This document shows positions 1,792 to 19,716 of a stretch of DNA of 19,865 bases, piece by piece. The position numbers were made by a program, and so were the translations under genes. A model generated the notes under the pieces. It was not told the DNA's origin, did no database searches, and saw only the letters and a program-made list of their open reading frames with translations. The stretch is from Deltaproteobacteria bacterium. GTDB taxonomy: Bacteria > Desulfobacterota > Desulfobacteria > Desulfobacterales > Magnetomoraceae. How positions within the stretch are numbered: position 1 is the stretch's first letter; every line of letters starts with the position of its first letter. Where the stretch lies: NCBI GenBank assembly GCA_002753725.1, contig PEAL01000065.1, positions 1 to 19,865 on the forward strand, written 5' to 3'.

Positions 1792-1816
1792 TTATTCCTT
1801 ATTCCTTATTCCTTAT
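1792..1816. repeat. Heptamer tandem repeat (ttattcc)x3.5, which is (ggaataa)n on the minus strand
   Basis: ttattcc occurs at 1792-1798, 1799-1805 and 1806-1812, followed by a partial ttat. On the minus strand this gives TAA in all three frames within 17 nt; the first (1808-1806) is the giant gene's stop. It also gives three AAGGA Shine-Dalgarno-like motifs ahead of the small ORF. Confidence 0.8.
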
Positions 1817-4800
1817 AAAAAATGATGGCTTCGGCACGCCGATTTTTTAGTTTTCCTTCTGGCGTTACATTTTCTGTAATGGGGCGTGTCTCGCCATAAC
1901 CTTTAGATGTCAGTCGCTGGGATGATATGTTAAAGGTTTTAATCAGATATGTTCGGATATAATCCGCGCGTTGCTGTGAAAGCTCTACATTTTTATCTTC
2001 ATCGCCGGAATTATCTGTATGTGCTTCAATCGTCGCATAAACATCAGGATACTGATTTAATAATTTTCCCAGAGCATTGATACGAGCATGGCTGATGGGT
2101 TTAATGGCTGATGCATAAAAATGAACATTTAAATCATAATGAAGCGATGTGTCTGATGTTGTCAGTTGTGCAAAGGCTGATTGAACAGGGGTTACATTAC
2201 CTGCCCGATCTCGTGCCTGGAGATGAATAAACCATCGGCCATCTTTTTGCGAGAGTGTCGTTTGGGTGATGGATTGAAAGTCACCCGATGGTATGGATGT
2301 CGGTTTTTGATCAATAACATATCGATAGTGAATGATTGGATCATTATCTTTCGCATGCCATGTCCATTGTTTTATTTTTTGAGGAATAATGTCATTAATC
2401 ATTGTATCAAAAACAGGAGGTGTATTATCCAATAATGCAGATACTGTATATACTTCACTGATATTCCCGGCCCTGTCCGTTGCCTGTACATGAATGTATC
2501 TTTTGCCATCACCCTCTGATATTTCAGCGGTATGATGGTCTTTAAAAGGCCCTGATGGCACTGAGATTTCCGATGAGTTGATGACCCATCGAAATGTGAC
2601 CTGTTGATCCATATCTGTAGCATTCCACGACCAGGTTTTCCTTTGTAAGGGTACAGGATCATCCTGAAGTCCATTAATCATCGGTTTTTGATTATCAATT
2701 ATTGCGGATACTGTTTTTACAGCACTGATATTTCCAGCGCGATCCTGTGCTTGTACATGAATATACCATCGCCCATTAACATCAGATAAGTGAGCCTGAA
2801 ATACAGGGCTAAAAACAGTTGATGGTGACGTTTCAGGTTTCTGATCAATATGATATCGGTACAAGATATTAGAATCAGCATCCCTGGCGGTCCATGACCA
2901 TTGAATCTGCTTTTGGGGAATCAAATGGTCTGCCAGACCTTCTATTTCCGGAGGAATCCTATCCAATATTGCGTAAACTGTTTTCGTGGCACTGACATTC
3001 CCAGCCCGGTCTTTGCCCTGGATATGAAAATACCAGACACCATTCGCATTGGAGAGGCCTGTTTCATTTGTGTGCGTAAAAGAACCTGTTGGCTCAGCAT
3101 CTGAGCGTTGATCAAGAAGCCATCGATAAGCAATCTGTTCATCATCATCGTTGGCGCGCCATTGCCATTGTTTGGATTGAACAGGTGTATCGTCATTTGA
3201 AAGGTGAGTGATTACGGGTGGTTTGTTATCTAACACACAATGGACAGTCAATACATTACTGATATTAAACGCCCTGTCTTGTGCCTGAACATGAAGATAA
3301 AACAAACCATTTTCATTTTCAAGCCGTGCTTGGGTTATTTGTGAGAATTGATTTTTCGGTACAGTGTAAGCATTTTGGTCAATGATATATCGATATTGAA
3401 TAAAGAGATCGTTATCTTTAGCGCTCCATTGCCATTGTTTGGATGTTGAAGGGGTGGTATCACTGGCAAGTTGTATTAGAATCGGTGGCTCATTATCCAA
3501 AATTGCTGAAACAGTTTTGACAGAACTTAGATTTCCTGCATAATCTTTCGCCTGAACATGTAAATACCATGTGCCATCTTTATCCGCGATGCGTGCCTTT
3601 GTGATATTTTTGAATAGGCCTGTTGGTATGGACTCAAAATTTTGATCAATAACATATCGATATCGAACATCAGTATGGGCATCATGGCTGTTCCAGTGCC
3701 ATTCTTTTTGTTGATGAGGAACTTTATCATCTTCCAGTCCAAAAATCTTTGGCGATTGATTATCCAATATGGCCACCGCTGTGGTAACCGGACTGATATT
3801 CCCTGCCTGATCTTTTGCCTGAATATGAATATACCATTTTCCATTGGATTGTTTCAACGTGGCTTGAGAGATATTCGTGTATTCTCCAGTTGGCACAGAA
3901 TCAGATGTCTGATCAATGGTATATCGATACAAGCATGACACTTCATTGGCAGCATCCCACGACCAGACCTTTTTTTGAACGGGAGTAAGATAATCAGTAA
4001 TGCCTGTGATTATGGGAGATGAACGATCGATGATTGCAGACACAGTCACGATATCACTCAAATTTCCAGCACGATCCCGTGCCTGTACATGGAGGTACCA
4101 CGTCCCTTCACCATTGGACAATTCACATGAATGATGATCGGTAAATGAGGTTGTTGGAATACCATTTGCCAATTGATCGACCTGATAGCGATATTGAGTA
4201 TATGAGTCATTATCCTCAACCTGCCATTGCCAATGGATGGTTTGTGCTGGTATTAAAACGTTATTCAAGCCGGTTATGACCGGAAGGGTAGTGTCTATCA
4301 CGATAGAAGCAGTGACAACATCACTGATATTATTCGCTGAGTCTCTGGCCTGTACATGAATAAACCAGAGCCCCTCCGTGTGGGACAGGCTCGCCTGGTT
4401 GATGGAATTAAACGAACCGGTTGGTTGTGATCGTTGTTTTTGATCAATGGAATATCGATAGTAAATGTTTGCATCAGTATCTTTGCCATACCATCTCCAA
4501 GTATGTGATTTCATAGGCTGATGAATATCTGAAAGCCCTGAAAGACTTGGGGCTGTACGATCAATAATGGCTGAAACGGTTTTGATGGGACTCAAATTAC
4601 CGGCGGTATCTTTAGCCTGTATGGATAAATAAAACACGCCTTCACCATCAGAAAAACTAACGGTATTGGTATAAGCAAACGTACCCGATGGTTTAATTTC
4701 AGGATGTTGTGTAATCACATAACGATACATCACATGAGGATCATCATCTCTTGCACGCCATGACCATTTTTTTTGCTGTGTTGGAATGGGATCAACGTTG

Positions 4801-7800
4801 ATATCCACTATTTCAGGGGCAATAGTATCCAGTCTGGCAGAGACAGTGACCACATTACTTACATTATCCGCCCTGTCCCTGGCCTGAACATGTAAATAGA
4901 ATATGCCATGATTATTGGAAATCTCTGCATATGTTATATCTGAAAAAGGACCAGAAGGTGTATATTGCTCAAAAGGGTTGATCGCATATCGATACATCAG
5001 TTCTGTATCCTGATCCTTTCCATGCCATATCCATTTTTTTTGGCTGACAGGGTTTATATCACTGGATAAGCCTTCAATGGTTGGAGGAATCGTATCAAAA
5101 TTTGCCCATACTGTTTGGGATGTGCTGATATTGCCAGCCCGGTCTTTTGACTGAACGTGAAGGAACCATCGGCCATTAATATTCTTTCCTGTAAAACAGG
5201 TCGTGGTATCAAAATCAGTTGAAAATTGTGCCTCGGAATGTTGAGTGAACGAATAACGCGATTTTACGCCGCTATCCTGATCAATTAATTGCCAGGCCCA
5301 TTGTTTGGACTGAACAGGATATGCAACAGAGGATAGCCCTTTTATTACAGGAGGAGTATTATCAAGAATACTTGACACTGTAACGATTTCACTGGTATTC
5401 CCAGCGCGATCCAGTGCCTGAACATGAATAAACCATGTCCCTTCAGCATTAGATAGATGAGCAGAGGTCACATGGGTAAAGGATGTTGTGGGGGATGCAT
5501 CGGCACGTTGATCGATAATATAGCGATGCAATACGTCTGGATCATTATCCAGGGTTGCCCATGTCCATGATTGATTCCTGACTGGATACAGATTATCTGT
5601 AAGTCCGATAATTTCAGGCGGGGTGTTGTCAATGATTGCAGAAACTGTGATGTGTTCACTAAGATTTCCTGCCTGATCTTTTGCCATAACATGCAAATAC
5701 CAGATGCCATCACCTTCTTCAATCGTGGCCTTGGCTTCTGGTTTGAATTGTCCAGATGGCGGTGCATCTTTATTTTGATCGATAGAAAATTGATAACTGA
5801 CGGTTTCATCCAAAGGTTCAGAATACCATGTCCATTTTTTCTGGTGTTTAGGTATAGAATCGTTTGAAAGCCCTTTAATGATTGGTGCTGTGTTATCCAA
5901 AATGGCTGAAACGCGAATTATTTCACTCAAATTGCCAGCACGGTCTTTTGCTTGAAGAAAAAGATAGCACATCTGATTTTCACCAGAGATTTCAACAGAT
6001 GTTTCATGCGTGTAAGAGCCGAACGGTTGTTTCTCAAGCGTTTTACTGATAGCATACCGATAGTCAAGGTATGGATCAGCATCATGGCCTTTCCATTGCC
6101 ATTTTTTTCTTTGTGTGGGAACGGGGTCATCATCTAACCCACTAATAACCGGGGCTGTGTTGTCCAGCAATTCAGAAACAGTGGCAACATTACTTTCATT
6201 TCCTGCGCGATCAATGGCCTGAACATGCAAATACCATCGGCCATCACCACTGGATATCGATGCCGTGTTCGTATATTGATAATTACCATCAGGTAAGGCG
6301 TTTTCATTTTGGGTGATTAAATACCGGTATACAATTTGGTGATCAGCGTCTTTTGCCTGCCAGTTCCATTTTATTTTTTTTACAGGATGCATTACAGGAG
6401 ATAATCCCGTGACTACCGGCTTTGTTGTATCGATGAGAGCTTTCACTGTAACCACAGAACTTAAATTGCCAGCAGTATCTTGTGCCTGTACATGGAGATA
6501 CCAAAGACCATCCGTTTCATAAATGGGTGTTGAATGAATCGTTGAAAAAATTCCCAATGGTTTGGAATCATAGAATTGATCAATTAAAATTCGAAAGCGA
6601 ACAGTGGGGTCAGCATCTTCTGCATGCCAAGAAAAAGATTTACTTCTTACCGGCGTTACTTCCCTGTCATCAGAAAGCCCCTTAATAACAGGCGGTAATT
6701 GATCCAACAGACAATATACATGATAAACCTTACTGAGATTGCCTGCCCAGTCTTTTGCCTGAACATGAAGATACCACCGCCCATCGACATCTTTAATTGT
6801 TGCGGTAGTTGTTTTTTTAAATTCTGTTTCAATGAGGGACTGTTCTTTCTGGTCAATGGTATACCGAAATGTCGCATTTTCATTTGAATGGGTTTTCCAG
6901 GCCCATATTTTCTGTTTTTTAGGAACGGAATCATTTTCAATACCCACAATTCTGGGAGGCACATTATCCAGAACCACAGAGACCGTGACAACATTGCTGA
7001 GATTTCCGGCGCGATCTGTTGCCTGAACATGGAGATAGCATAAGCCTTCAATATCTTTGGCAATCGCAGAATGTGTTGAATTAAACGGTCCTTCAGGTTT
7101 TGAATCAGGATGATGATCGATCAAATACCTGAAAAGAATAGTGGTATCATCATCCTTTGCTGACCATGTCCATCGTTTAACTGTTGTGGACGTTAATGAA
7201 TCAGACAGGCCGATAATTATTGGCGCTGTGGTATCAAGAATTGTCTGGACAGTGACAGTATTGCTTTCATTGCCTGCTGTATCGCATGCCTGAAGATGTA
7301 GATACCAGATACCATCATCATAATAATTTTTATCCAGTTGAATCATGCGGGTGAATGTATATGCACCTTTTGGATGAGAATCGGCAAACTGATCGACAAG
7401 ATATCGAAACCGAACATTGGGGTCAGCATCGTTTGCTGATAGCATCCATTTTTGTATGGACACTGGCGTAATCGAATGAGCAATATCATTAATGAGTGGT
7501 GGTATGGTGTCAATTGTAATGGATAACAACTCAGAAATACTGATATTTTCATCACTCTGGGTTTGATAATGTGCAGATAATTCATGTGTCCCTTCAGTCA
7601 AATCAATGTTAAACTGAAAAATATCTGCTGTGATGACTGTCGTTGCCCCTGATAAAGCATTTCCATCAACAAGAAGAACCACTGTCTGGTCGATATCTCC
7701 GAATCCTTGAATGTGTAAATTTTTAGATTGGCGGGTGATCCTATCGGTATTGAAAAAACCTGTATCATGTTCAGGTTCCAAGGATAGATTATATGGTTTT

Positions 7801-8693
7801 GGGTAGTGTGAATAAATGCCTTCTCCCCAGAAAATGTCAGCATGTTCTGTTTTATTCACCGCATTTTGTTTATTTCGAATATTGGTATACGCAATTGAAA
7901 TGGCATTGGAATCAGCATATTCAGACAAATAAATTTCATAGGGCATTTGTTCATTCCACAACGTTGCATGCGTCATAGTAAGAGAAGAATGATAAGCAAA
8001 AATGGCAGAGGAAACAGGGGCATCATTAACGGGGTGATTTTGGGTTAAAACCGTGCGAAATATATTTATCGTTGATTTTTGGGCGTAAATGGCTATTCCG
8101 GAAGTGGCTTTATTGTTCATCAATGTGACATTCGATAAGATCATATCTGAACCCTGACAATATATCCCTGCACCTGAACTGTTTGCTGTATTATGGACAA
8201 TGGCTGTTTGAGTGAGAGTCATGTTAGCGTACACGCAATATATACCACCGCCTTGTTCTGCGGTATTTTCTTTGATAATGACATTCACGAATTGAGGTGA
8301 TGCACCTCTGCAATAGACCCCTCCGCCGAGGTAAAAGGATTTTATGTCAGCTTTTCCATTGATGAGCGAAACATTACTGATGTGCGTTTTTTGATCCACA
8401 ATACCACCCAATGATTCATCAAAAAGCAACACACTTGAACGTTGGCAGCCATCAATGATTGTCTTGTTCTTGTCTTCACCAGACAGCTGAATGCCATTGA
8501 CTTTTGGCCATATAATATTTTCACGATAATTCCCATTTTTAATCAAAATGGTATCGTTGGATGTTGCAGAATTCAATGCTTGCTGGATGGTTTTAAAATC
8601 CGCTGGTACATGTAACATACGTGCATATGTGATTGAACATGCAAATAATAAAAAAAGAATACAAAATAAATATGGTTTAATGCTTGTTCTCAT
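1806..8693 (-). CDS. Giant (2295 aa) envelope or surface protein with four parts: lipoprotein-type signal, Pmp-like parallel beta-helix, 20 Ig-like tandem repeats, C-terminal OmpA-like peptidoglycan-binding domain
   Basis: - **Start:** chosen at M38 of the ORF-track frame (ATG 8693-8691), 11 nt after the upstream gene's stop. The resulting N-terminus is MRTSIKPYLFCILFLLFAC, with lipobox L-F-A-C.
- **aa ~62-335:** GGGVYC/GGGIYC/GAGIYC alternating with (I/V/L)xxNxA, the GGA(I/L/V)+FxxN pattern of polymorphic-outer-membrane-protein / PbH1 beta-helix repeats.
- **aa ~360-436:** an Ig-like module.
- **Repeat array:** 20 repeats (see the repeat feature).
- **C-terminus (nt ~1809-2126):** IEAHTDNSGDEDKNVELSQQRADYIRTYL...GYGETRPI...NRRAEAIIF, which matches the OmpA_C-like signature (TD..G....N..LS..RA..V..YL / G.G...P / NRR.E). 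Confidence 0.93.
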   Translation of the reverse strand: MRTSIKPYLFCILFLLFACSITYARMLHVPADFKTIQQALNSATSNDTILIKNGNYRENIIWPKVNGIQLSGEDKNKTIIDGCQRSSVLLFDESLGGIVDQKTHISNVSLINGKADIKSFYLGGGVYCRGASPQFVNVIIKENTAEQGGGIYCVYANMTLTQTAIVHNTANSSGAGIYCQGSDMILSNVTLMNNKATSGIAIYAQKSTINIFRTVLTQNHPVNDAPVSSAIFAYHSSLTMTHATLWNEQMPYEIYLSEYADSNAISIAYTNIRNKQNAVNKTEHADIFWGEGIYSHYPKPYNLSLEPEHDTGFFNTDRITRQSKNLHIQGFGDIDQTVVLLVDGNALSGATTVITADIFQFNIDLTEGTHELSAHYQTQSDENISISELLSITIDTIPPLINDIAHSITPVSIQKWMLSANDADPNVRFRYLVDQFADSHPKGAYTFTRMIQLDKNYYDDGIWYLHLQACDTAGNESNTVTVQTILDTTAPIIIGLSDSLTSTTVKRWTWSAKDDDTTILFRYLIDHHPDSKPEGPFNSTHSAIAKDIEGLCYLHVQATDRAGNLSNVVTVSVVLDNVPPRIVGIENDSVPKKQKIWAWKTHSNENATFRYTIDQKEQSLIETEFKKTTTATIKDVDGRWYLHVQAKDWAGNLSKVYHVYCLLDQLPPVIKGLSDDREVTPVRSKSFSWHAEDADPTVRFRILIDQFYDSKPLGIFSTIHSTPIYETDGLWYLHVQAQDTAGNLSSVVTVKALIDTTKPVVTGLSPVMHPVKKIKWNWQAKDADHQIVYRYLITQNENALPDGNYQYTNTASISSGDGRWYLHVQAIDRAGNESNVATVSELLDNTAPVISGLDDDPVPTQRKKWQWKGHDADPYLDYRYAISKTLEKQPFGSYTHETSVEISGENQMCYLFLQAKDRAGNLSEIIRVSAILDNTAPIIKGLSNDSIPKHQKKWTWYSEPLDETVSYQFSIDQNKDAPPSGQFKPEAKATIEEGDGIWYLHVMAKDQAGNLSEHITVSAIIDNTPPEIIGLTDNLYPVRNQSWTWATLDNDPDVLHRYIIDQRADASPTTSFTHVTSAHLSNAEGTWFIHVQALDRAGNTSEIVTVSSILDNTPPVIKGLSSVAYPVQSKQWAWQLIDQDSGVKSRYSFTQHSEAQFSTDFDTTTCFTGKNINGRWFLHVQSKDRAGNISTSQTVWANFDTIPPTIEGLSSDINPVSQKKWIWHGKDQDTELMYRYAINPFEQYTPSGPFSDITYAEISNNHGIFYLHVQARDRADNVSNVVTVSARLDTIAPEIVDINVDPIPTQQKKWSWRARDDDPHVMYRYVITQHPEIKPSGTFAYTNTVSFSDGEGVFYLSIQAKDTAGNLSPIKTVSAIIDRTAPSLSGLSDIHQPMKSHTWRWYGKDTDANIYYRYSIDQKQRSQPTGSFNSINQASLSHTEGLWFIHVQARDSANNISDVVTASIVIDTTLPVITGLNNVLIPAQTIHWQWQVEDNDSYTQYRYQVDQLANGIPTTSFTDHHSCELSNGEGTWYLHVQARDRAGNLSDIVTVSAIIDRSSPIITGITDYLTPVQKKVWSWDAANEVSCLYRYTIDQTSDSVPTGEYTNISQATLKQSNGKWYIHIQAKDQAGNISPVTTAVAILDNQSPKIFGLEDDKVPHQQKEWHWNSHDAHTDVRYRYVIDQNFESIPTGLFKNITKARIADKDGTWYLHVQAKDYAGNLSSVKTVSAILDNEPPILIQLASDTTPSTSKQWQWSAKDNDLFIQYRYIIDQNAYTVPKNQFSQITQARLENENGLFYLHVQAQDRAFNISNVLTVHCVLDNKPPVITHLSNDDTPVQSKQWQWRANDDDEQIAYRWLLDQRSDAEPTGSFTHTNETGLSNANGVWYFHIQGKDRAGNVSATKTVYAILDRIPPEIEGLADHLIPQKQIQWSWTARDADSNILYRYHIDQKPETSPSTVFSPVFQAHLSDVNGRWYIHVQAQDRAGNISAVKTVSAIIDNQKPMINGLQDDPVPLQRKTWSWNATDMDQQVTFRWVINSSEISVPSGPFKDHHTAEISEGDGKRYIHVQATDRAGNISEVYTVSALLDNTPPVFDTMINDIIPQKIKQWTWHAKDNDPIIHYRYVIDQKPTSIPSGDFQSITQTTLSQKDGRWFIHLQARDRAGNVTPVQSAFAQLTTSDTSLHYDLNVHFYASAIKPISHARINALGKLLNQYPDVYATIEAHTDNSGDEDKNVELSQQRADYIRTYLIKTFNISSQRLTSKGYGETRPITENVTPEGKLKNRRAEAIIFYKE
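2163..7496 (-). repeat. 20 tandem, diverged ~89-aa (~267-bp) coding repeats inside the giant gene
   Basis: Each unit carries W-x-W...D-x-D...(Y/F)-R-Y...D-Q...P-x-G...G-x-W-(Y/F)-(L/I)-H-(V/I)-Q-A-x-D-x-A-G-N-x-S...(L/I)-D-N-x-P-P-x-I-x-G-L. I counted 20 occurrences of the HVQA.D.AGN core (e.g. WYLHVQAKDWAGNLS, WFIHVQARDSANNIS). The D.AGN...V.V.D..PP.I ending resembles HYR/bacterial Ig-like beta-sandwich repeats, but I cannot assign the exact family by eye. The copies are diverged at the DNA level, so this is not a recent amplification. Confidence 0.9.
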
Positions 8694-8704: not shown

Positions 8705-10858
8705 TTAATTGACGACAATCGAATAAAAATAATAAAAATAACCTGCTATCATAAAAAGAGATAAAAAAAGTCCTGTACATTTTACTCTTGGTATTGCCTG
8801 ACAAAAGCCTTTTCGATTCAAGCCGGCAATAATAAGTGTCAACACAAATGAAAGGCCTGTCATAAGGTAAAGAAGAATAAACCAGTGATCAAATGGGATA
8901 AGATAATCAACAGATATTTCAGACAGGAAGTAATATAAGAACGATACCACTCCCAGGCATGACAGATGGGCAAACATCGCAATCAGTGTATGGGAAGGAA
9001 TGATGAATAAAAGGCAGGATAAAAGACCCATAATAATGCATCCAGGAACAAAACATCGCAACCACTGATGAAAAGAATCTCGATGAATAAGGATTTGAAT
9101 TCTATAATCCGGGTTATGTTCTTGATTAAATTGCGAATAATCAACCTTAGGTTGCGTTGTCATGCCATAAGCATAGCAGCGATTCAGTTTCCAGTTGGAA
9201 AGGTTAAATCGATCATTGTCATTGAGACTGATTTCTTTGTTAATATATCTCATTTCATTACTTTTTAATGTATTATGATAAAAATGAATACCTAACTTTT
9301 GTTTATCAAAAGGGTATGTATGGTACAAAAAATTTATCTTAAAGGATCCCTTAATGCTGTATTTTTTATACAAGACACCATCAAGGGTTCCACTTTCAAC
9401 AGGATCGTCTAAAACAACAGGTGTTGTTGCATTTAAAAAGCAAATATCTGCGGGGTCGATTACCGGGGTGTCATACAAGAATGTCAGAAAAAAATGAGCC
9501 GTAAAGAACGATTCTTTTATATCCAGTTCAACGATTTCAGTTTTTACCTGAACAATCGATACGTGTTGAATATCTGATTCATAAGGATTTGTATGGTTTA
9601 ATTTAGATTTCATGTCCATCAGAAACTGTTGGTGAAAAGGAACAAGTACCCCTTTTTGATAGTGACCCAGACCTGTATTTTTTATTGCATTTCCATTATC
9701 ATCAAAAAAGATATCACCGCAGATTCCTTTAAAAGCATAATCAGGTTTCTTTATATCGGTAAGAAAATTTTTTATTTGACGTCTGTACTGGTAAGATCGT
9801 GCAGTGGGGTCAATTTCCATTTTTCTAAGAATATCTGCCATCAGAAGTGTGGCATCATAATAATTTGTTGCAATAGACGATGGAACGTTACGATATTTTT
9901 CATAATAGGCCTTAAAAAAGTCTACAGATTGAGAATTAAACAAATAATTCGCAAAGATATCATTTGCAGTTGTGAAAACACCATCTGAATAATAACCAGG
10001 AATTGATTTTTCCAGGGCAATTGTTCGTAATTCGTTTTGAAACGATTCATATGAAAATACATGACCATTGGTTATAAAAAAGTGAGGATCAAAAGCGTTT
10101 AATTTTTCAATAATCTGAACAGCCAGGCGATCAGATGTTGCAATAAAAACAGAGCTTTTTGCTTTAGATGTTTTAAACATTCTAACGATGGTTTGCAGTT
10201 GTGGATAAATATTTTTTTCTTCATCAATATCAATTGTATTTTCAATTTTAATGCCGTTATTTTTGAAAAAATTCATATATGTATTTTTGATATCACGACT
10301 ATAAATATCTTTAGATGCAATAATGGTTACAGGTGACCATTTACAATACTGCTTTGAAAACATAGCCAGAAATGTTGCCTGATGGAGAGAGGATGGTATG
10401 GATCGAAAATACCATTCATTGTTTAATGTAACATTCGTTGCTGGTGCTGAGGCGGTAATCGCGGGGATACCTTCTTTTAAATAAACCTGCCCGGCAGAAA
10501 AACTGGCAGCGCTGCTATAATGCCCAATAACAAAAAGCAGATGGTCATTTCTTGAGAATGAATTGGCAACTTTCATGGCAAGATTGGTTTTATTCATGTC
10601 ATCTTTATAGATATATTTCAATTTTTTACCATCAATACCGCCATTTGCATTGATTTTTTCTATACATAAATCAATACCCCGAAGCATTTCTTTGCCATAT
10701 TCTTCATCCGCCCCACTGAATGGGCCTGCAACACCAAACAGGCACACATCTTGATCACTGTGATAGATATCAAATACACTCAATAGTAGTAGTATACCGA
10801 TAAACAGTATCACAATTAAAATAATCAATAGGCCTTTATTTAAAATGAATTGTTTCAT
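8705..10858 (-). CDS. Type-I periplasmic binding protein (LivK/ANF-receptor-like) fused to a pentameric ligand-gated ion channel (Cys-loop superfamily) module: paralogue A, 717 aa
   Basis: - **N-terminus:** signal anchor LLIILIVILFIGILLLLSVF.
- **aa ~38-410, PBP-I motifs:** FGVAGPFSGADEEYGKEMLRGIDLCIEKINANGGIDGKKL, FVIGHYSSAAS, IPAITASAPATNVT, EWYFRSIP.
- **aa ~432-592, pLGIC extracellular-domain pattern:** IVQVKTEIVELDIKESFFTAHFFLTFLYD, CFLNA, and the signature loop YPFDKQKL (nt 9293-9316).
- **Transmembrane part:** IHRDSFHQWLRCFVPGCII (pre-M1 Arg plus M1 Pro) and four TM helices with a very short M3-M4 loop, including an IPFDHWF M3 start. Confidence 0.85.
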   Translation of the reverse strand: MKQFILNKGLLIILIVILFIGILLLLSVFDIYHSDQDVCLFGVAGPFSGADEEYGKEMLRGIDLCIEKINANGGIDGKKLKYIYKDDMNKTNLAMKVANSFSRNDHLLFVIGHYSSAASFSAGQVYLKEGIPAITASAPATNVTLNNEWYFRSIPSSLHQATFLAMFSKQYCKWSPVTIIASKDIYSRDIKNTYMNFFKNNGIKIENTIDIDEEKNIYPQLQTIVRMFKTSKAKSSVFIATSDRLAVQIIEKLNAFDPHFFITNGHVFSYESFQNELRTIALEKSIPGYYSDGVFTTANDIFANYLFNSQSVDFFKAYYEKYRNVPSSIATNYYDATLLMADILRKMEIDPTARSYQYRRQIKNFLTDIKKPDYAFKGICGDIFFDDNGNAIKNTGLGHYQKGVLVPFHQQFLMDMKSKLNHTNPYESDIQHVSIVQVKTEIVELDIKESFFTAHFFLTFLYDTPVIDPADICFLNATTPVVLDDPVESGTLDGVLYKKYSIKGSFKINFLYHTYPFDKQKLGIHFYHNTLKSNEMRYINKEISLNDNDRFNLSNWKLNRCYAYGMTTQPKVDYSQFNQEHNPDYRIQILIHRDSFHQWLRCFVPGCIIMGLLSCLLFIIPSHTLIAMFAHLSCLGVVSFLYYFLSEISVDYLIPFDHWFILLYLMTGLSFVLTLIIAGLNRKGFCQAIPRVKCTGLFLSLFMIAGYFYYFYSIVVN

Positions 10859-10889
10859 AAGTTGCTATAAATTATATAAATTATTATTC

Positions 10890-13037
10890 TTAAAGCGGAA
10901 AACAACAGTTGACCACATAAAAAGATATCATCATTATCGTAATCAAACATGCTGCCTTTCCCAAAAATTGAACGAACGCCATTGATTGCTTATAATGATG
11001 GATCGATAAGCCTATCAGTCCCATTTGAAACATGATTGTCAACCCAATAAAACCATACAAACACATAAACAGCATTTCAGAGAATGTCAGAAATGGTATG
11101 TGTAATTTGAAATATAAATGGCATACAGTAGTGATCATCAGGAATATGATATTGATCACCAATGAAATTTTTATTCGATGCACAGGACAAAAATAACTGA
11201 TCGATGTCAGTAGAAAAAGAATAAGACAGGCAATAAAAATAAGCTTTTCCTGCTGATTCAGGCGCCTTTGAATATGAATATCAACAGCGAATTCAGATGC
11301 GTTATTCTTAATATCTCCTGACAATGGGCTTTTTATTAAATAAGGCATCGCGTCCACAGATAGCCATGTTTCAGAATTCAATTTAAAACTTATTTTATTT
11401 AGCTGATCAATAGCAAATATAAACGTGTTTGTGTTTACGCTTGTATCCCGAAAACTTATGGTCAGTTTTTGGCTGTCTATGGGATATCGTTTAAGGTCAA
11501 AGTGATGATAAAATACACTATCCACGGTGTATAACAGATGTGTGGTACCTTGTTTATTCATAGTTTTTTTAGGATTTTTCAATACAAGCGGAGAAACAGC
11601 GTTGGTAAATTGAATCCATTCAGGTTGAAAATGCTTTTGAAAACTAAACCAGAGATTAAACCGGGCATGAAATGTACCATCTATCGTATTGATTTGATTT
11701 AATTGAATATCATCTATCCTTACATACACTAATTGTTTTTTGATAAAATAATCATCATTGTTTGCCATAACGTCATTATCTAATGCTTTTTGAATCAAAT
11801 CATTGGAAATATCATTGAGTGAAACAGCGATGTATTGATGAAAGGCGGGAATATAATGGCCCTTGTATAATTGAGTGACAATCATTGACTTTTTCGTTTC
11901 GCCAACACCATTAAAAAATATTTTTCCGGTTAAGCCCTCCACACAGTGATTCCTATCATAGAATGTTTCAAGTGCATTTTTGAATTTTTTTCTGATGTCC
12001 CGGATAGCCCCCTGTATCTCAATTTTTCTTAATGCTTCAATGCTAACATGTGCCAGATCATAAGATGTCGTACTGATTAATGAAGGCGGTACTCCATAAA
12101 AGGTATAATAATTCTTTTCAAAAATTCTATTGATTTGTTTTGAAAAATACTGAGAAAACAACGATACAGAGTAGATACCATTTGAATAAAAACCGGGTGA
12201 GGATTGTTCTTTGGGATACGCTTTGAATCCATCGATAAAAATTTGAGATGCCAAGGAATCTGCGCCCATAATGATTTGATTCAGTTGCTTCTTTTTCAAA
12301 CCAACCACCAATTTTACAGACGTATCAGCGTGGGTTGCCAAAAAAAACATATCAGGTTTTAACGCATGCGTATCAATGGCCTGTACAATAGTATCAACCT
12401 GATCATCCATACTCGTTGAACTCGAATCCAATGGATATTGTTCAACAATCTCAATTCCTTTTTCCAGTGCTTGTTCTGTAAATACTGCTGCTAAATTTTT
12501 ACCATATGCCCCTGTATCATAAACAATCGTTGCGGTTTTAAGATTCAATGCTGATTGTGCGTAAGCAGCAAGAAAATCACTTTGACAGGAATTTGGTGGG
12601 ACAATTCTGAACAACCATTCATTCATAATCGGCAAGTCATCAGATGTTGCTGAACCGGTTATTGATGGAATCATGTTGTTTTCATAAATAGAGGCAGCCG
12701 CAGTGCAGCAGGAACTGAAATAATGTCCCAGAACAAAAAGAATGTCCTTGTTTCGAACAATTTGTTTTGCTGCACCGACAGCGCCTTCTTCGGTGCCTTT
12801 ATCGTCAAAAACAAGCAGCTTGATCTGGCTGCCATGAAGTCCTCCTGAGGCGTTTATTTGATCAATATAGAATTGTACCCCTTTAACCATTTCATTTCCA
12901 TAAAAAGACTGGGAACCACTGAATGTACTCGCAACCGCAATATAAAGCGTTTTCTTGCCATAATACAAATGAATCGTATAAAATATGGAAATCAACATGC
13001 TTATCAGTAAAATTATAATAATATATTTTTTCATCAT
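10890..13037 (-). CDS. Type-I periplasmic binding protein fused to a pLGIC (Cys-loop superfamily) module: paralogue B, 715 aa
   Basis: - **Start:** chosen at M20 of the ORF-track frame (ATG 13037-13035), 2 nt after the upstream TAA (13042-13040). This gives MMKKYIIIILLISMLISIFY.
- **PBP-I motifs:** YIAVASTFSGSQSFYGNEMVKGVQFYIDQINASGGLHGSQIKL, FVLGHYFSSCC, IPSITGSATSDDL, EWLFRIVP.
- **pLGIC part:** LVYVRIDDIQLNQINTIDGTFHARFNLWFSF, QFTNA, HHFDLKRYPIDSQKLTISF (YPIDSQKL at nt 11463-11486), IHIQRR, then four TM helices.
- It is collinear with paralogue A throughout. Confidence 0.85.
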   Translation of the reverse strand: MMKKYIIIILLISMLISIFYTIHLYYGKKTLYIAVASTFSGSQSFYGNEMVKGVQFYIDQINASGGLHGSQIKLLVFDDKGTEEGAVGAAKQIVRNKDILFVLGHYFSSCCTAAASIYENNMIPSITGSATSDDLPIMNEWLFRIVPPNSCQSDFLAAYAQSALNLKTATIVYDTGAYGKNLAAVFTEQALEKGIEIVEQYPLDSSSTSMDDQVDTIVQAIDTHALKPDMFFLATHADTSVKLVVGLKKKQLNQIIMGADSLASQIFIDGFKAYPKEQSSPGFYSNGIYSVSLFSQYFSKQINRIFEKNYYTFYGVPPSLISTTSYDLAHVSIEALRKIEIQGAIRDIRKKFKNALETFYDRNHCVEGLTGKIFFNGVGETKKSMIVTQLYKGHYIPAFHQYIAVSLNDISNDLIQKALDNDVMANNDDYFIKKQLVYVRIDDIQLNQINTIDGTFHARFNLWFSFQKHFQPEWIQFTNAVSPLVLKNPKKTMNKQGTTHLLYTVDSVFYHHFDLKRYPIDSQKLTISFRDTSVNTNTFIFAIDQLNKISFKLNSETWLSVDAMPYLIKSPLSGDIKNNASEFAVDIHIQRRLNQQEKLIFIACLILFLLTSISYFCPVHRIKISLVINIIFLMITTVCHLYFKLHIPFLTFSEMLFMCLYGFIGLTIMFQMGLIGLSIHHYKQSMAFVQFLGKAACLITIMMISFYVVNCCFPL

Positions 13038-13039
13038 AT

Positions 13040-15721
13040 TTAATTCAGTTGCCAATCTTTGATATTCTGTCCACCAAGAGCCATATGAGACCAATTTTTA
13101 ATGCGTGGTTTTATAAGGTAATGGTCGGTTTCATAGAAAATGGGGATTACAAGCGTCTCTCTTTGGGTCAGAATCTCATCGATCATTAAATAATAGTCTT
13201 TTCTTAAATGTAAATTTTTTTCTTTTATGGCTTTATTCAACACATCAGATAATTCTGTATTGATATAACTGTTCTGGCGGCTAAGCTTGTTATATGAATC
13301 AAACAAAAAACTATTGGCATCAGGAAAAGTCGCATACCAGTCAGAAATGAAAATATGAGCCTGTCTGGGATTGTATGAACCAGGTTCTGTAAGACCGATG
13401 ACAGTGGATTGAAGATTCAATCTTTTTTTAAGTAGTAATGAAATCGCTTTGGCAATTTGTTTATGGGAATCATGGATTCCTGAATCAATTAGAATTGCAG
13501 GGCATCCTTTTCCGCCAGGATAGCCCGCTTCGGCTAACATTTTCATGGCATGAGTGGGATGGTAAACAGGCCGTTTCTCCTGACTTGACAGCAATAATAA
13601 ATCAGGGGGTATAAACATTTTCATTGCCTTTTGTTGCCCATGAATGACGAACCTGGTAATAAATGAGCGATCAATAACAGACGCAATGGCTTTTCGTAAC
13701 AAAACATTATCCACAGGGGATTGATTCACATTGAAAAAAAGGCCGGTTGTAGAAAAATTGGTACGTTCTTGATAGTCATGTCGGGTTTCAGGTTGCTTTT
13801 TGACCGAATCAAGAAAACGCGATGGGATGTTTATAAAAGCCCCCCCAAGAATATCCAGTTGATTGTTTTGATACATATGCAAAGCAAGCAGGCTGTTCAT
13901 GATAACGTTATAACGCACTTCCTGAATGGCAACAGTTGAAGCATCATAATAGCGGTCATTTTTTCGTAAAATAATCAAAGAGCCTTTTTCATGACAAGCC
14001 AGTTGAAAGGGACCATTACTGACAATATGTTCAGGGGCTGTCCATTCAGCAGCCCATTTTTGAATCGTTGCCGAAGGCAGAGGGCTGAAAACAGGCAGTC
14101 CGGTGATTGAAGGAAAAAATGCAGCAGGATAGGACAGGATAAAATCAATGGTATAATCATCAATAACGTTGACCCCCAGTTTTGATGCATCTTTGATGAA
14201 TCCTAGATGAATGTCCTGGGCATTTTTGAGTATGAATAAGTGTTTTACATCCGGGCATTGGGTTTCAGGGGTCAAATTTCTAACTATTGCAAATCTCAGA
14301 TCGTGAGCTGTCACCGGCTGTCCGTTTGTCCAGAACACATTTTTTCGCAATTTAAACCGGTAACGATCTAAGGTTTCATTCGGTTCCCAACTCGTGGCAA
14401 AGTCCGGGGAAGACTGATAGGTGTCAGGATGGTATTGAGTCAGGCGTATAAACAATTGCTTTGATAATTCAGTTGTTATTTTATCATGGGCAAGCCCCGG
14501 GTCTAATCGTGAAACATCATTGTTACAAAACCTGTTTATATTGAAAGAATCGACCAGGTCAAAAAAATCATCCTGCTTTTTTTCTTTTCGATTAATAATG
14601 ACAAATTTTCCATCTTCATATTTTTTAAAAAATAAAGCGGATGGCCCGATATTTCCTTGTCGTGTCAGATGATATTGACTTAAAACACCATCCCAATGTT
14701 CCATGAATCTAAGAGTTGTATTTAAAACCATTGGTAAACATGAATTACTTTTTTCCATTGACGTTTTAAGCAAATGAATCAGATCATAACCCCGGGCAGC
14801 AAATGTTTCAGGCTCAACGCCAAAGGCTTGCGTAAAACTGGAAACAAAATCTTGTGTTAATTTTCTGGGAAGTGTGTTGTCAAAGTTGCTTGGGATGATG
14901 GTTCCTTCAGCTTTTTTTCCAGTATTACTCCAAAAATAGCGTGTGTCAATTTCATCGGTGGCCATAATTGGGGTATTGATATTCAACTCTCTCATCTGAT
15001 TTACCACCAATGCTGCGATGTTATCTCTGCATAATAATAAAACAATGTCAAAGGATTCATTTTTTAAATCACTTAAGATATCTCTGAAATTTGTTTCAGA
15101 TCGAGAAAAGGATTGTTGAGATACAATCGCAAGGCCTTTTTGTGTGGCCTCTTCATAAAAAATATCAGCAAGAATCTTACTGGTTTTCTGGCGGTCATTA
15201 AGGATAATAATGCGCTGATAGTGGTTTTGAGAGAAACATTCAGCAATTCTTCTAACATATACTTGATCTGGCATATAATTATTAAAAATATAGGCCCCGC
15301 CATAGCGTAATAAATCCGCCCCTGTAGAAAAAAATAATATGCCAGCTTCTTTGTATACGATTGATGCAGAAATAGCATTTTGAGGACTAAAATGTCCGAT
15401 AACAGCAAAAACATTTTTATTTTTAGCTAATTTTTCTGCAATGCGAATGGATGTTTTTTCATCATCATAATCATAAAACAAAAGCGGTCTGATCCTTTTC
15501 CCCATAACGCCGCCATCGCTGTTTATTTCATCCATAGCCAGTTTAACGCCATGAGCAAACTGTGTGGTAGCAGGGAATGCGTCCACAATTCCAATGAAAA
15601 GATCATCGGTTGATCGGGTCAAATGCTTCATGCGCTCTTCATTGGAAATAACCTTGTTACATGAAAAAAATGTAAGAAGGAGTACAATAAAAGCAAAATG
15701 TAAAACGATGATTGGTTTCAT
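13040..15721 (-). CDS. Probable lipoprotein fusing two solute-binding domains: N-terminal LivK-type PBP-I plus C-terminal family-5 (OppA/DppA/NikA-type) SBP, 893 aa
   Basis: - **Signal:** MKPIIVLHFAFIVLLLTFFSC (Cys21, an imperfect lipobox F-F-S-C).
- **aa ~40-378, PBP-I:** FIGIVDAFPATTQFAHGVKLAMDEINSDGGVMGKRIRPL, FAVIGHFSPQNA.
- **aa ~390-893, family-5 SBP pattern:** LDPGLAHDKITTELSKQLFIRL, SWEPNETLDRYRFKLRKNVFWTNGQPVTAHDLRFAI, VSNGPFQL, LRKNDRYYD.
- It ends 2 nt before the next gene's ATG. Confidence 0.88.
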   Translation of the reverse strand: MKPIIVLHFAFIVLLLTFFSCNKVISNEERMKHLTRSTDDLFIGIVDAFPATTQFAHGVKLAMDEINSDGGVMGKRIRPLLFYDYDDEKTSIRIAEKLAKNKNVFAVIGHFSPQNAISASIVYKEAGILFFSTGADLLRYGGAYIFNNYMPDQVYVRRIAECFSQNHYQRIIILNDRQKTSKILADIFYEEATQKGLAIVSQQSFSRSETNFRDILSDLKNESFDIVLLLCRDNIAALVVNQMRELNINTPIMATDEIDTRYFWSNTGKKAEGTIIPSNFDNTLPRKLTQDFVSSFTQAFGVEPETFAARGYDLIHLLKTSMEKSNSCLPMVLNTTLRFMEHWDGVLSQYHLTRQGNIGPSALFFKKYEDGKFVIINRKEKKQDDFFDLVDSFNINRFCNNDVSRLDPGLAHDKITTELSKQLFIRLTQYHPDTYQSSPDFATSWEPNETLDRYRFKLRKNVFWTNGQPVTAHDLRFAIVRNLTPETQCPDVKHLFILKNAQDIHLGFIKDASKLGVNVIDDYTIDFILSYPAAFFPSITGLPVFSPLPSATIQKWAAEWTAPEHIVSNGPFQLACHEKGSLIILRKNDRYYDASTVAIQEVRYNVIMNSLLALHMYQNNQLDILGGAFINIPSRFLDSVKKQPETRHDYQERTNFSTTGLFFNVNQSPVDNVLLRKAIASVIDRSFITRFVIHGQQKAMKMFIPPDLLLLSSQEKRPVYHPTHAMKMLAEAGYPGGKGCPAILIDSGIHDSHKQIAKAISLLLKKRLNLQSTVIGLTEPGSYNPRQAHIFISDWYATFPDANSFLFDSYNKLSRQNSYINTELSDVLNKAIKEKNLHLRKDYYLMIDEILTQRETLVIPIFYETDHYLIKPRIKNWSHMALGGQNIKDWQLN

Positions 15722-15746: not shown

Positions 15747-16616
15747 TTAATTTTTATCACCATTTGTTTCTGTATTCAGAATTAAAGGCAATCCATTCTT
15801 GCCACTGCCAATAATAATAATTTTTGAATTTTGTGATTCTGCAAGTTTTTCAGTGGCTTTAATCCCTTGCCAATTGAGATATTGTTCTTTATTGAAAAGG
15901 GATGATGCAATGGTGTTCAAATGATCTCGGATACCTTCTGCTTCAATTCTTTTTCGGGTTGCTTCTTTTTTTTCTCGCTCAATAACATAAGTATGGGCTT
16001 CCGCCAGATGTTTTTGTTTGATTTTATTACGAATGGATTCGGCCACTTCTTCAGGAAGTATGATCCCCCGAACAAGAACATCATCAATATTGATATAGCG
16101 TTGAGCGACCTGTTCTATGGCTTTATTGATAGCCTCCACAATTAATTTTCTTCCCGTGGTGTAAACTTCTTCAGCATTCAATGTACCAATAATTTCACGA
16201 ATAACAGCTTCTATTTCAGGAATAATCACCTTATCCGCATACTCCATTCCCACTTGCTGATGTAATACACCAAGAAGTTTATATTCAGGCGCATAGCGAA
16301 TAGAGAGTTTAATATGAACTTGCAAACCATTTTTAGTGAGGACATCCATTTCCGGTTTAATTTCCTGGATACGAACATTATAGACGTACATTTTATCCCA
16401 GGGAAGAATTAAGTGAAGACCTTCTGAATAAACAGAAAGGATATCTGTTCCACCAAAAAAACGACTCCAAAACACCGCTGCTTCACCTGGATAAATATTG
16501 TATACAATCATATTAAACAGGAAAGCAAAGGTCAATAAAGCAATCAAAATGGTCAGAATGAGAGAAAAGGTATAATTTTTTAATTTGATAAAAAAGTTCT
16601 TGAACCTGTTTTTCAT
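15747..16616 (-). CDS. SPFH/Band-7 (prohibitin/HflC-like) membrane protein, 289 aa
   Basis: The start is chosen at M28 of the ORF-track frame (which opens on TTG), giving MKNRFKNFFIKLKNYTFSLILTILIALLTFAFLF, an N-terminal membrane anchor. SPFH core: PGEAAVFWSRFFGG...GLHLILPWDKMYVYNVRIQE...TKNGLQVHIKLSIRY. A charged coiled-coil follows: KQKHLAEAHTYVIEREKKEATRKRIEAEGI. It is the first gene of the minus-strand operon. Confidence 0.88.
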   Translation of the reverse strand: MKNRFKNFFIKLKNYTFSLILTILIALLTFAFLFNMIVYNIYPGEAAVFWSRFFGGTDILSVYSEGLHLILPWDKMYVYNVRIQEIKPEMDVLTKNGLQVHIKLSIRYAPEYKLLGVLHQQVGMEYADKVIIPEIEAVIREIIGTLNAEEVYTTGRKLIVEAINKAIEQVAQRYINIDDVLVRGIILPEEVAESIRNKIKQKHLAEAHTYVIEREKKEATRKRIEAEGIRDHLNTIASSLFNKEQYLNWQGIKATEKLAESQNSKIIIIGSGKNGLPLILNTETNGDKN

Positions 16617-16818
16617 GATAAATTTCTTTTCATGGATGATAATTAAACAGTAAAATGGGGTGGAAATCAATGATTGTATTGTTATTATGAACAGCAAATG
16701 ATAATAACTAAAAAAAAATGAAATGTCTATGAAAAAAAATGAAAGAAAGGGCAGCCATCACAAAGCATATGGCAACAAATCTATAAATCATTACATAAAT
16801 ATATAAAGATGTAGACCA
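16617..16818. promoter_or_regulatory. Divergent intergenic/promoter region between the minus-strand operon and the plus-strand FAD-protein gene
   Basis: A 202-bp AT-rich gap between divergently oriented start codons. Candidate sigma70-like promoter on the minus strand: -35 TTGATT (16670-16665), 17-nt spacer, -10 TTTAAT (16647-16642). A direct repeat aaaaaaaatgaaa occurs at 16711-16723 and 16732-16744, a 21-bp period. Motif-level guess only. Confidence 0.35.
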
Positions 16819-18213: not shown

Positions 18214-19716
18214 ATGATTCTTCACATCTCAAAAGTATTTATTTTTTTTATTTATTGCATGGTTGGTTACCTACTGTTGATTGTTCCTGGCCTTTGCCAG
18301 GAAGAGCCGGGAGAAACAGCTTTTGATTTGGGGGTGTTTGCTTTTGAAGACAAGGATTTTGATTCCGCCGAAAGACATTTGTTAAAGGCACTGTCCTTAG
18401 CCCCTGATCAGCCCTTTTACTGCCTTTTTCTGGGCAAGGTTTACCTGGCCATCAATCAGCTTGATAAGGCTGAAAAATTTTTGACAAAAGCCTTTCAGCT
18501 AAATCCAATTATGAACGGCCTGAATTATGACCTGGCATACCTGACATTTAAGCAATCACGCTTTAGCGATGCGGCAGATCGTTTTTCAAAAATTGTCGAA
18601 AACGATCCCCTTACCCAAAATGTACTGGCTTGTTACTATGCCGGCATATCATTTTTTGAATGTAATCAATATGAAAAGGCCATTCAATATCTTATGCGTG
18701 CTGCCGAACGTAGCCCCACAATTAAACCCAACAGTATGTTTTACTGTGGTATCTGCTATTATAAACAACATCAAACCCAAAAGGCCGTTCAACATTTTGA
18801 ATATGTGTTGATGCATGCCCCCGCCGATGAATTAAAAGACCATGCAAAAAAATGGCTTATTGCCCTTCGGGCTCAAAAATCTCAGGAACAGCCCTTTGAT
18901 TGTTTAGTCAAACTCTCGGTTCAGGCAGATGATAATGTCATGATCGTTTCCCCTGACTGGATTACCGGAGACGAATCTGATGGTGTTATGCAATTTTATC
19001 TTGCGGGAAAATATTTTTTTACCCCAAAGGATCGCCATCGTTTGGGGGTCGGATTTCGGCATTATCAAACCGTTCATCAGGATCTTTCAGAATTTGACCT
19101 GATGGGAAATATCATTGATATTGCTTATTCATTCCAAATGCCTTTGATTACGCTGGGCCTGAAATACTCACCATCCGCTTACAGGCTCGATGGCAGACAA
19201 TATATAACACGACACCAGTGGAAAGGTCATGTATTGTGGAACGTTTCGGATAACCTGATGAATCGTTTTGCTTATTCCTGTTATATCCAAAATCATGATG
19301 AAAACAGTGAGCGGGATGGGCACACGCATGACATTTCAATGGATATGTATTATAGGCTTAAAAAACATAAAATGAAACTATTGGCAGGTTTTTCAGCAGA
19401 GGAAAACCATCGAAATGAAATGCGATATCAATATGAGGACTTAAAATTCACTCTGGGCCTGACCAAAAAACTTTTGTATACATTGACATTTCATAGTAAG
19501 CTGGGTATTTCTCACAGACGCCACGAGCAATGGGATGAATTGGGCTTTAAGCGAAAGGATAACAAATTTGAGTTTTCATGTACTATTTTAAAGCCGGTCT
19601 GGCAAAAAGGTATGGAAATAGGGTTTGATTACAGTTATACAAAAAATAATTCAATTTTAGACGCATACGATTATCGACGAAATATTTTTGGTATATCGTT
19701 TTTATATCATTATTAA
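18214..19716 (+). CDS. Outer-membrane protein: signal peptide, TPR domain and C-terminal beta-barrel. The architecture is Slam/DUF560 (type XI secretion)-like
   Basis: - **Signal:** MILHISKVFIFFIYCMVGYLLLIVPGLCQ.
- **aa ~35-218, TPR-type helical repeats:** AERHLLKALSLAPDQPFYCLFLGKVYLAINQLDKAEKFLTKAFQLNP, AADRFSKIVENDP, YEKAIQYLMRAAERSP, QKAVQHFEYVLMHAP.
- **aa ~229-500, barrel:** alternating-hydrophobic strand pattern starting LVKLSVQADDNV and ending in aromatic-rich YRRNIFGISFLYHY, an OMP-type C-terminal signature.
- The ~500-aa size and the TPR+barrel order match Slam proteins, but I cannot verify DUF560 membership by eye. Confidence 0.8.
   Translation: MILHISKVFIFFIYCMVGYLLLIVPGLCQEEPGETAFDLGVFAFEDKDFDSAERHLLKALSLAPDQPFYCLFLGKVYLAINQLDKAEKFLTKAFQLNPIMNGLNYDLAYLTFKQSRFSDAADRFSKIVENDPLTQNVLACYYAGISFFECNQYEKAIQYLMRAAERSPTIKPNSMFYCGICYYKQHQTQKAVQHFEYVLMHAPADELKDHAKKWLIALRAQKSQEQPFDCLVKLSVQADDNVMIVSPDWITGDESDGVMQFYLAGKYFFTPKDRHRLGVGFRHYQTVHQDLSEFDLMGNIIDIAYSFQMPLITLGLKYSPSAYRLDGRQYITRHQWKGHVLWNVSDNLMNRFAYSCYIQNHDENSERDGHTHDISMDMYYRLKKHKMKLLAGFSAEENHRNEMRYQYEDLKFTLGLTKKLLYTLTFHSKLGISHRRHEQWDELGFKRKDNKFEFSCTILKPVWQKGMEIGFDYSYTKNNSILDAYDYRRNIFGISFLYHY

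Follow-up and report, generated by a model that had tools for sequence, protein, structure and literature searches.

Three LivJ/LivK-type flytrap modules in one bacterial operon: a canonical motif, two paralogous channel-fused subunits and a binding lipoprotein of a separate clade

The stretch of contig PEAL01000065.1 analysed here (the window, 19,865 nt) carries an operon on its minus strand in which three genes, A, B and C, each encode a type I periplasmic binding protein (PBP-I, or Venus-flytrap) module of the LivK type. In A and B this module is followed by a predicted pentameric ligand-gated ion channel (pLGIC), and in C by a second, OppA-like binding domain. An earlier note on this DNA, whose span 9629..15604 (minus strand) corresponds to the N-terminal halves of the three proteins, held that they share an atypical G-H-(Y/F) motif, arose by duplication within the locus and may recognise related ligands, and that the free copy in C and the channel-fused copies could compete for or relay the same signal. 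The motif is in fact a rediscovery of the LivJ/LivK signature, and for one of the three modules the evolutionary inference does not hold. The locus itself is a better lead than the motif and adds a new example to a class of flytrap-fused pLGICs that has been known computationally since 2004. The explanation that is considered likely overall combines a canonical motif, A and B as paralogous PBP-I–pLGIC subunits, C as a separate protein and a receptor mechanism. Its descriptive conclusions, namely the domain identities, clade structure, pocket residues and gene order, are held with high confidence.

The strings quoted in the note are all present: FVIGHYSSAAS in A (G112-H113-Y114), FVLGHYFSSCC in B and AVIGHFSPQNA in C, along with a second shared motif that reads INANGGIDG, INASGGLHG and INSDGGVMG, respectively. 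The presence of three homologous LivK-type domains in one operon is likewise borne out, since all three match Peripla_BP_6 and ANF_receptor well above the gathering scores (PF13458, Peripla_BP_6: 114 bits in A, 131 in B and 105 in C, with a cut-off of 31.7); their scores against the NCBIfam LivJ/K-type models, 70-92 bits, are far under the cut-off of 477. The motif is not atypical. Escherichia coli K-12 LivJ and LivK carry YVIGHLCSSS and INAKGGIKG, and in a five-way alignment of A, B and C with LivJ and LivK, to which the window modules are ~20-23% identical, neither the G and H nor, in the second motif, the I-N and G-G vary. The G-P sequence previously taken as usual is one variant among several and not the rule, because among solved structures 4mlc (VIGHRNS) and Atu2422 (VVGHFNS) have G-H, 4gnr has G-P and 4n0q has G-L; G-H is the variant of the archetypes LivJ and LivK.

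How common the motif is was counted in 226 PBP-I domains, drawn from the relatives of all three proteins together with the top 150 representatives, at 50% clustering, for the C module. A G-H preceded by two hydrophobic residues is present in 214 of them, including 85 of 92 free binding proteins, all 56 channel-fused modules and all 28 dual binding proteins; among the 150 nearest representatives of C it is present in 135. The pattern IN..GG[ILVM].G is found in 61 of the 92 free binding proteins. Because G-H and IN..GG are family-wide, their sharing by A, B and C reflects family-level homology and is not a signature of this locus; a chance match was rejected as the reason for it. Judged by sequence, what the note quoted are strand-loop signatures that are standard for the LivJ/LivK-type PBP-I fold. 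The sole informative residue in the motif is the aromatic Y or F that follows the invariant G-H, at the equivalent of LivJ position 77, where the residue lines the pocket and in Atu2422 (Phe77) determines specificity. It is rarer: GH[YFW] is present in 20 of the 92 free binding proteins, 53 of the 56 channel-fused modules and 9 of the 28 dual binding proteins, while the 150 nearest representatives of C have R (26), L (16), Y (14), A (11), S (11), N (7) or F (7) among the residues at this place.

The kinship of the three modules separates C from the other two. A and B are 26% identical from end to end (E 1e-65), and their PBP-I domains alone match each other at 169 bits in phmmer comparisons. 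By the same measure the C domain scores 37 bits against A and 65 against B, which leaves it as far from both as from LivJ and LivK (56–57 bits), and it is much nearer to its best free binding protein (222 bits); B and LivJ match at 64 bits. An exhaustive search with the C module returned 219 representative clusters at E ≤ 1e-30, the best 150 of which all reach at least 135 bits and are mostly free proteins of ~390 aa or other dual binding proteins. A neighbour-joining tree of the 226 domains (344 columns, 100 bootstraps) agrees with these scores. The A-type and B-type modules are each monophyletic (100/100 and 98/100 bootstraps), all channel-fused modules form one clade in 77/100, and A-type and B-type are exclusive sisters in 3/100. 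C groups with the free binding protein P0158 to the exclusion of all fused modules in 99/100 bootstraps, and in 100/100 no clade unites B with C without taking in 10 or more free binding proteins. A recent copying of the A or B flytrap into C was considered as well and is rejected by the bit scores and the tree.

The description of the modules as three paralogues is thus right for A and B, which are paralogous over their full length, but not for C, which lies in a separate clade. Orthologues of A, B and C, 39-69% identical, occupy the same set of contigs (39-66% for A and 40-66% for B), and since A and B each have orthologues of their own on these contigs, the A/B duplication predates the divergence of the genomes concerned. 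On the aligned sequences, A and B are therefore ancient paralogous subunits, and C belongs to a separate clade with free binding proteins, with which it clusters in 99–100% of bootstraps; an origin of all three by duplication within the locus does not agree with this.

The position of the motif in the ligand cleft can be judged by homology to LivJ and to Agrobacterium Atu2422, here in mature LivJ numbering, in which the motif is G75-H76-L77-C78-S79. A docking study of LivJ lists hydrophobic contacts with Leu77, Cys78, Ala100, Ala101, Ala103, Tyr150, Tyr202, Phe276 and Tyr18 and polar contacts with Ser79 and Thr102 (PMC6983066). Atu2422, whose normal ligands are gamma-aminobutyric acid (GABA) and amino acids with short side chains (PMC3656012), has Phe77 directly after His76, as counted from the alignment. 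The motif thus lines the cleft, with LivJ residues 77 to 79 in contact with the ligand. PDB entry 3ipc, which bears the title 'F77A mutant ... in complex with leucine', has GHA in place of the wild-type GHF; because this mutant binds leucine, an aromatic residue at 77 appears to restrict the size of the pocket, and it is plausible that the Y or F after the His acts as a pocket-size gate. Tyr275 of Atu2422, which we take to be a second selectivity residue, is not obviously conserved in the window modules.

Beyond the motif, the pocket positions differ sharply among the three modules. The B-type pocket consists of Y18, G-H-Y77, S79, S100-A101-T102, Y150, H202 and D226, which are identical in 8/8 orthologues and kept in 37-41 of 41 members of the wider channel-fused family. 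A-type modules keep G-H-Y and S79 (C at 79 in the orthologue P0302) and vary among 8 orthologues at 102 (P/S/T), 202 (S/K/H) and 226 (H/N/D), A itself having P, S and H at these positions. The C-type pocket has G-H-F77-(D/S)-P79 and G100-A101, a two-residue deletion at 102-103, and no conserved residue at 150, 202 or 226. For the LivJ anchoring set S79/T102/Y150/Y202/E226, B thus reads S, T, Y, H, D, A reads S, P, Y, S, H and C reads P, gap, T, R, D. B has the look of a functional amino-acid-type site that Tyr77 narrows, whereas the pocket of A looks relaxed and that of C looks re-purposed. Because these other positions differ, the pockets do not point to related ligands, and the argument that A, B and C have a ligand in common is weak.

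Compared with LivJ and LivK (PDB 1z15 and 1usg), the window modules share the Pfam family, the fold and the V-I-G-H-x-x-S and I-N-A-x-G-G-I-x-G signatures, and B in addition has equivalents of S79, A/S100, A101, T102, Y150 and E/D226. They differ in that Leu77 is replaced by Tyr or Phe in all three and Y202 by His in B, that A and C are without several of the anchoring residues, and that none of the three is a free binding protein beside a LivHMGF transporter. Atu2422 (PDB 3ip5-3ipc), with its G-H-F-N-S sequence, has Phe77 after the His just as C does (GHF), comparable to the GHY of A and B; it differs in being a free binding protein for ABC (ATP-binding cassette) transport, and its similarity to the window modules is distant (~58-67 bits).

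A duplication of all three modules within the locus, which would have left them with an unusual G-H-(Y/F) pocket and the same or related ligands, would account for the G-H-aromatic and IN-x-x-GG sequences common to A, B and C, for their place in one tightly packed operon with a conserved gene order, and for the fact that the residue after the His lines the pocket. It is nevertheless largely refuted by the phylogeny, in which a grouping of B with C that leaves out the free binding proteins is rejected in every bootstrap. The G-H pair is family-wide, and the aromatic at 77 is not a trait of the family of C, because in the wider family of dual binding proteins R (11) is more frequent than F (8) at this position. 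C is also without S79, T102 and Y150, all of which are conserved in B. The modules thus largely show the two features that had been named beforehand as speaking against a local origin, separate clades and a motif common in the family, though the motif does sit in the cleft, and a shared origin within the locus is considered highly improbable.

The statement that two of the modules are fused to a channel is supported. The C-terminal ~300 aa of A and B are pLGIC by profile, by the YPFDxQ Pro-loop and by fold. The AlphaFold2 model of B (mean confidence, pLDDT, 88.5) comprises a PBP-I domain at residues 30-405, a beta-sandwich at 423-591 and four long transmembrane helices at 595-712. The PBP-I part is a two-lobe Venus-flytrap that matches 4gnr, 3td9 and 4q6b in Foldseek (E ~1e-24, target TM-score 0.88-0.90). 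With the full-length B model the top 50 Foldseek matches are all PBP-I, and with a separate model of the C-terminal part (pLDDT 82.9) the top 50 PDB matches are all pLGICs (E ~1e-14, ~305-320 columns). A profile of 17 C-terminal regions matches GLIC, ELIC and GLIC/ELIC–GABA-A chimeras from the Pro-loop through M4 (E 9e-22 to 1e-17); 5/17 of its members match Neur_chan_memb and 3/17 Neur_chan_LBD. The Pro-loop [FY]-P-x-D-x-Q reads YPFDKQ in A and YPIDSQ in B and is kept in 26/27 aligned relatives, the exception being P0301 with YTFNRQ.

The second transmembrane helix (M2) differs between the two subunit types. A carries a conserved S-C-L-G-(L/V)-N segment and the A-type has G at the nominal 9' position, where the register is uncertain. 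In an alignment to GABA-A alpha1, whose register is uncertain by ~1 residue, the B-type has V/I, I/V, M/I/L, V/Y/F and L at nominal 2', 6', 9', 13' and 16' and is hydrophobic throughout, without polar rings. In the canonical relatives P0018, P0021 and P0026, which match Neur_chan_memb, M2 is ordinary and has R/K at 0'. Some relatives extend the fusion further: P0038, P0043, P0307 and P0308 are single chains of ~1,000-1,150 aa in which PBP-I and a pLGIC-like part (130-162 bits with the family profile) are joined to MscS (PF00924), and 3/4 of these chains also have a cNMP-binding domain. Their topology is compatible, yet it is puzzling that one chain should combine a pentameric with a heptameric channel class. 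Other additions to the PBP-I–pLGIC unit are cadherin (P0010), SBP_bac_1/8 (P0020) and a C-terminal cNMP-binding domain (P0034 and the 853-aa product of L002:15962-18523 in a related locus), the last of which would require an extra membrane crossing.

Fusions of PBP-I to pLGIC were predicted from the genomes of Magnetospirillum magnetotacticum and Bradyrhizobium japonicum by Tasneem et al. in 2004, who also drew attention to free-standing binding proteins encoded in operons with pLGIC genes, and who expected one pLGIC gene per genome and homopentamers (PMC549065). The assumption of homopentamers was made because most genomes have a single pLGIC gene. The order of PBP-I, pLGIC extracellular domain and four transmembrane helices is identical in A and B. 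The window differs in that it keeps two divergent paralogues side by side, that the partner is a dual binding protein of PBP-I and family 5 and not a PBP-II, and that an SPFH gene and a giant OmpA-domain protein belong to the operon. The A and B pair therein offers a test case for heteromeric prokaryotic pLGICs.

Flytrap-fused pLGICs are without structural or functional characterisation. DeCLIC, a pLGIC from Desulfofustis in which a large periplasmic N-terminal domain modulates gating, was described in a 2022 paper as the only pLGIC with an extra N-terminal domain and a solved structure, and in a 2025 paper as the only one partially characterised (PMC12664993, PMC9897478). Like A and B it comes from the former Deltaproteobacteria and has a large periplasmic N-terminal domain, but this consists of two beta-rich calcium-binding lobes and is not a PBP-I flytrap. 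A flytrap N-terminal to a membrane signalling module is also found in the amino-terminal domains of animal NMDA and AMPA receptors, in metabotropic glutamate receptors (mGluR) and in GABA-B receptors (PMC549065), and mGluR4 is among the weak PDB matches of A; these are tetrameric ionotropic glutamate receptors or G-protein-coupled receptors whose membrane parts are without homology to A and B.

Gene C encodes a different kind of protein. Its N-terminal half matches PDB 4mlc at 1.6e-39 and its C-terminal half matches OppA3 (PDB 9pv8) at 3e-61 and Borrelia OppAIV (4gl8) at 2.5e-56; SBP_bac_5 (PF00496) covers aa 438-810 with 211.6 bits and marks this half as a family-5, or cluster C, binding protein. 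Orthologues share the lipobox Cys, which lies at about residue 21, and the architecture of PBP-I and OppA-like domains is kept in ~29 clusters, including members from Candidatus Magnetomorum and Candidatus Electrothrix.

The neighbourhood of C recurs. One related locus, L001, has the gene order of the window with a HepT-like gene (toxin–antitoxin nucleotidyltransferase-binding, L001:6026-6427) inserted, which splits the B-type and A-type channel genes. Locus L002 has Band_7, DUF697, a dual binding protein and two PBP-I–pLGIC genes, one with a cNMP-binding domain. In Desulfonema magnum (L005) a dual binding protein is followed by a PBP-I–pLGIC gene (747 aa), an MscS-like gene (1,301 aa) and a second PBP-I–pLGIC gene (703 aa). 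L007 has PBP-I–pLGIC, a plain SBP_bac_5 protein, PBP-I–pLGIC and an OPT transporter, and in Ca. Electrothrix (L006) Band_7 and a dual binding protein occur with DUF697 genes and no pLGIC. The recurring unit, present in the window and four other loci, is two PBP-I–pLGIC paralogues with a family-5 binding protein, often with Band_7 attached to the latter; in each of the examined loci that has a dual binding protein and reaches far enough upstream, Band_7 lies directly upstream of it, as in L001, L002/L003 and L006. This conserved gene order supports a putative functional link of the free binding protein C with the channels, and no published description of the conserved partner set was found. Almost every named organism in which the PBP-I–pLGIC or dual-binding-protein families were encountered is a multicellular or filamentous bacterium (Ca. 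Magnetomorum, Desulfonema magnum, Ca. Halobeggiatoa, Ca. Marithrix and Ca. Electrothrix), which could be a sampling effect of the word-indexed search.

It is proposed that B, whose flytrap is intact, binds a small amino-acid-like ligand in a pocket that Y77 would narrow and in which S79, T102, Y150 and D226 are retained, and that closure of this flytrap would pass to the extracellular domain of the attached channel and so gate or modulate ion flux. A, with its relaxed pocket and different M2, would be a second subunit type that probably co-assembles with B. C would serve as a periplasmic co-receptor, probably through its peptide-binding half, and not as a competitor for the same ligand. Stomatin-family proteins regulate animal channels, and by analogy the SPFH protein may scaffold the complex. 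As a whole this chain is tentative and is more likely to fail at one of its steps than to hold throughout. A wider proposal is that the conserved module is a bacterial chemo-electrical receptor, apparently enriched in multicellular and filamentous bacteria, in which a heteromeric pLGIC has a ligand-competent B and an A with a degenerate pocket, C is a soluble co-receptor and SPFH an organiser. This is speculative and on balance unlikely, but if true, such a heteromeric receptor module could carry signals from cell to cell or between a cell and its surroundings in Ca. Magnetomorum, Desulfonema magnum, Ca. Halobeggiatoa and Ca. Marithrix. The B flytrap is a concrete target for ligand screening, with a conserved divergent subunit pair, a predicted small amino-acid-like ligand and a candidate co-receptor.

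Several points weigh against the explanation as a whole. The phylogeny beneath it is distance-based at 20-30% identity, gives only 77% support for the monophyly of the channel-fused modules and draws on a sample in which relatives of B and C are over-represented. Scanned by themselves, to E=10, the C-terminal ~310 aa of the two channel-fused proteins reach no Pfam Neur_chan threshold. Because in both types M2 is unusually hydrophobic or divergent, with an uncertain 9' register, conduction by A and B is unproven, and because some relatives fuse PBP-I–pLGIC to MscS and cNMP-binding modules, there is a possibility that the pLGIC-like part acts as a sensor or scaffold and not as the pore. Carried further, A and B would not be channels at all, their pLGIC-like module having lost conduction and now forming pentamers in the membrane that scaffold the flytrap sensor or transduce its signal, as a receptor and not a pore. 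The missing polar rings of the B-type M2, the G at nominal 9' in the A-type, the sub-threshold Neur_chan scores and the MscS, cNMP-binding, cadherin or binding-protein domains added in relatives all fit this idea, yet the Pro-loop, beta-sandwich and four transmembrane helices are kept with high model confidence, the relatives P0018, P0021 and P0026 retain an ordinary M2 and Neur_chan_memb matches, and the M2 comparison itself depends on a register that is uncertain by ~1 residue. The loss of conduction is judged improbable.

A further point against the explanation is that the Band_7–dual binding protein pair of Ca. Electrothrix occurs without a pLGIC gene, because of which C may act independently of the channels. 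In this case C could be an ordinary binding protein of an ABC importer whose permease and ATPase are encoded elsewhere, and its proximity to the channel genes would be without mechanistic meaning. Each half of C has its matches among transport binding proteins, OppA for one and LivJ-like for the other, and orphan binding proteins are common. However, a protein containing SBP_bac_5 adjoins the PBP-I–pLGIC pair in five loci from distinct lineages, and the gaps between C, B and A are at most 31 nt. The window encodes no cognate LivHMGF-like permease or ATPase for C, a Pfam scan detected no ABC transporter domain in any of its open reading frames, and L001 likewise has no ABC genes, while L002 has an ABC_tran gene at its edge. 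A role of C confined to import is hence regarded as decidedly unlikely, and the preferred reading remains that of a co-receptor for the flytrap-fused channel subunits.

The features of the window are listed in the table together with the Band_7 genes of the related loci.

Table. Coordinates of the operon genes and their modules in the window, and of Band_7 genes in related loci
Feature	Coordinates	Strand	Evidence
SPFH/Band_7 gene, operon gene 1	15747..16697	-	Pfam PF01145, 88.6 bits
Gene C, 893-aa predicted lipoprotein with two binding domains	13040..15721	-	Peripla_BP_6 105 bits, SBP_bac_5 211.6 bits
C PBP-I module, aa ~38-380	14582..15610	-	INSDGGVMG 15500..15526, GHF 15389..15397
C OppA-like module (SBP_bac_5, cluster C), aa ~389-877	13091..14557	-	Pfam and PDB matches
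Gene B, PBP-I–pLGIC fusion subunit, 715 aa from M20 (open reading frame 734 aa from 13094)	10890..13037	-	
B PBP-I module	11868..12947	-	INASGGLHG 12831..12857, GHY 12720..12728
B pLGIC module, beta-sandwich with YPIDSQ Pro-loop, then M1-M4	10902..11771	-	Family profile, Foldseek
Gene A, second divergent PBP-I–pLGIC fusion subunit, 717 aa	8705..10858	-	
A PBP-I module	9629..10744	-	INANGGIDG 10628..10654, GHY 10517..10525
A pLGIC module, YPFDKQ Pro-loop and four transmembrane helices	8708..9586	-	
Giant surface protein, ~2,295 aa, last operon gene	1806..8693	-	Big_13 152 bits, OmpA 62 bits
Band_7 gene, related locus	L001:265-1149		
Band_7 gene, related locus	L002:8204-9208		
Band_7 gene, related locus	L006:6910-7980		

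The five genes are arranged in the order Band_7 (SPFH), C, B, A and the giant Ig-repeat/OmpA gene, with gaps of about 25, 2, 31 and 11 nt. A terminator scan detected no terminator-like hairpins between them, and promoter-like sites were not enriched compared with shuffled sequence, so that the two scans together back the operon call weakly. The SPFH gene likely starts at M28, near 16616. The mechanical open reading frame of B begins at a TTG located 55 nt inside gene C (13037..13094 region, minus strand), and the NCBI model of B (P0001, 702 aa) begins at M33, which would truncate the N-terminal hydrophobic helix; a start at M20/M21 (MMKKYIIII...), right after the stop codon of C, is a better fit to the orthologues. 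The likely start of the giant gene is 11 nt past the stop codon of A, at the same place as in L001. Its product has a signal peptide, a beta-helix-like N-terminus, ~20 Ig-like repeats of ~95 aa and a C-terminal OmpA domain, and may serve at the cell surface or in adhesion in a multicellular magnetotactic bacterium. The window as a whole is all but identical to Candidatus Magnetomorum contigs (P0047, 99%, and P0296, 100% identity).

A plus-strand open reading frame at 9629..9988 (119 aa), the start of which is also the start coordinate of the span in the earlier note, lies antisense within the well-supported coding region of A and is most likely not a gene. Outside the operon, the plus-strand region 18214..19716 of the window encodes a protein that has TPR repeats at its N-terminus and, at its C-terminus, a beta-barrel-like region with a match to SlipAM (surface lipoprotein assembly modifier) at 4.9e-8. 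This may be relevant, since the product of gene C is a predicted lipoprotein.

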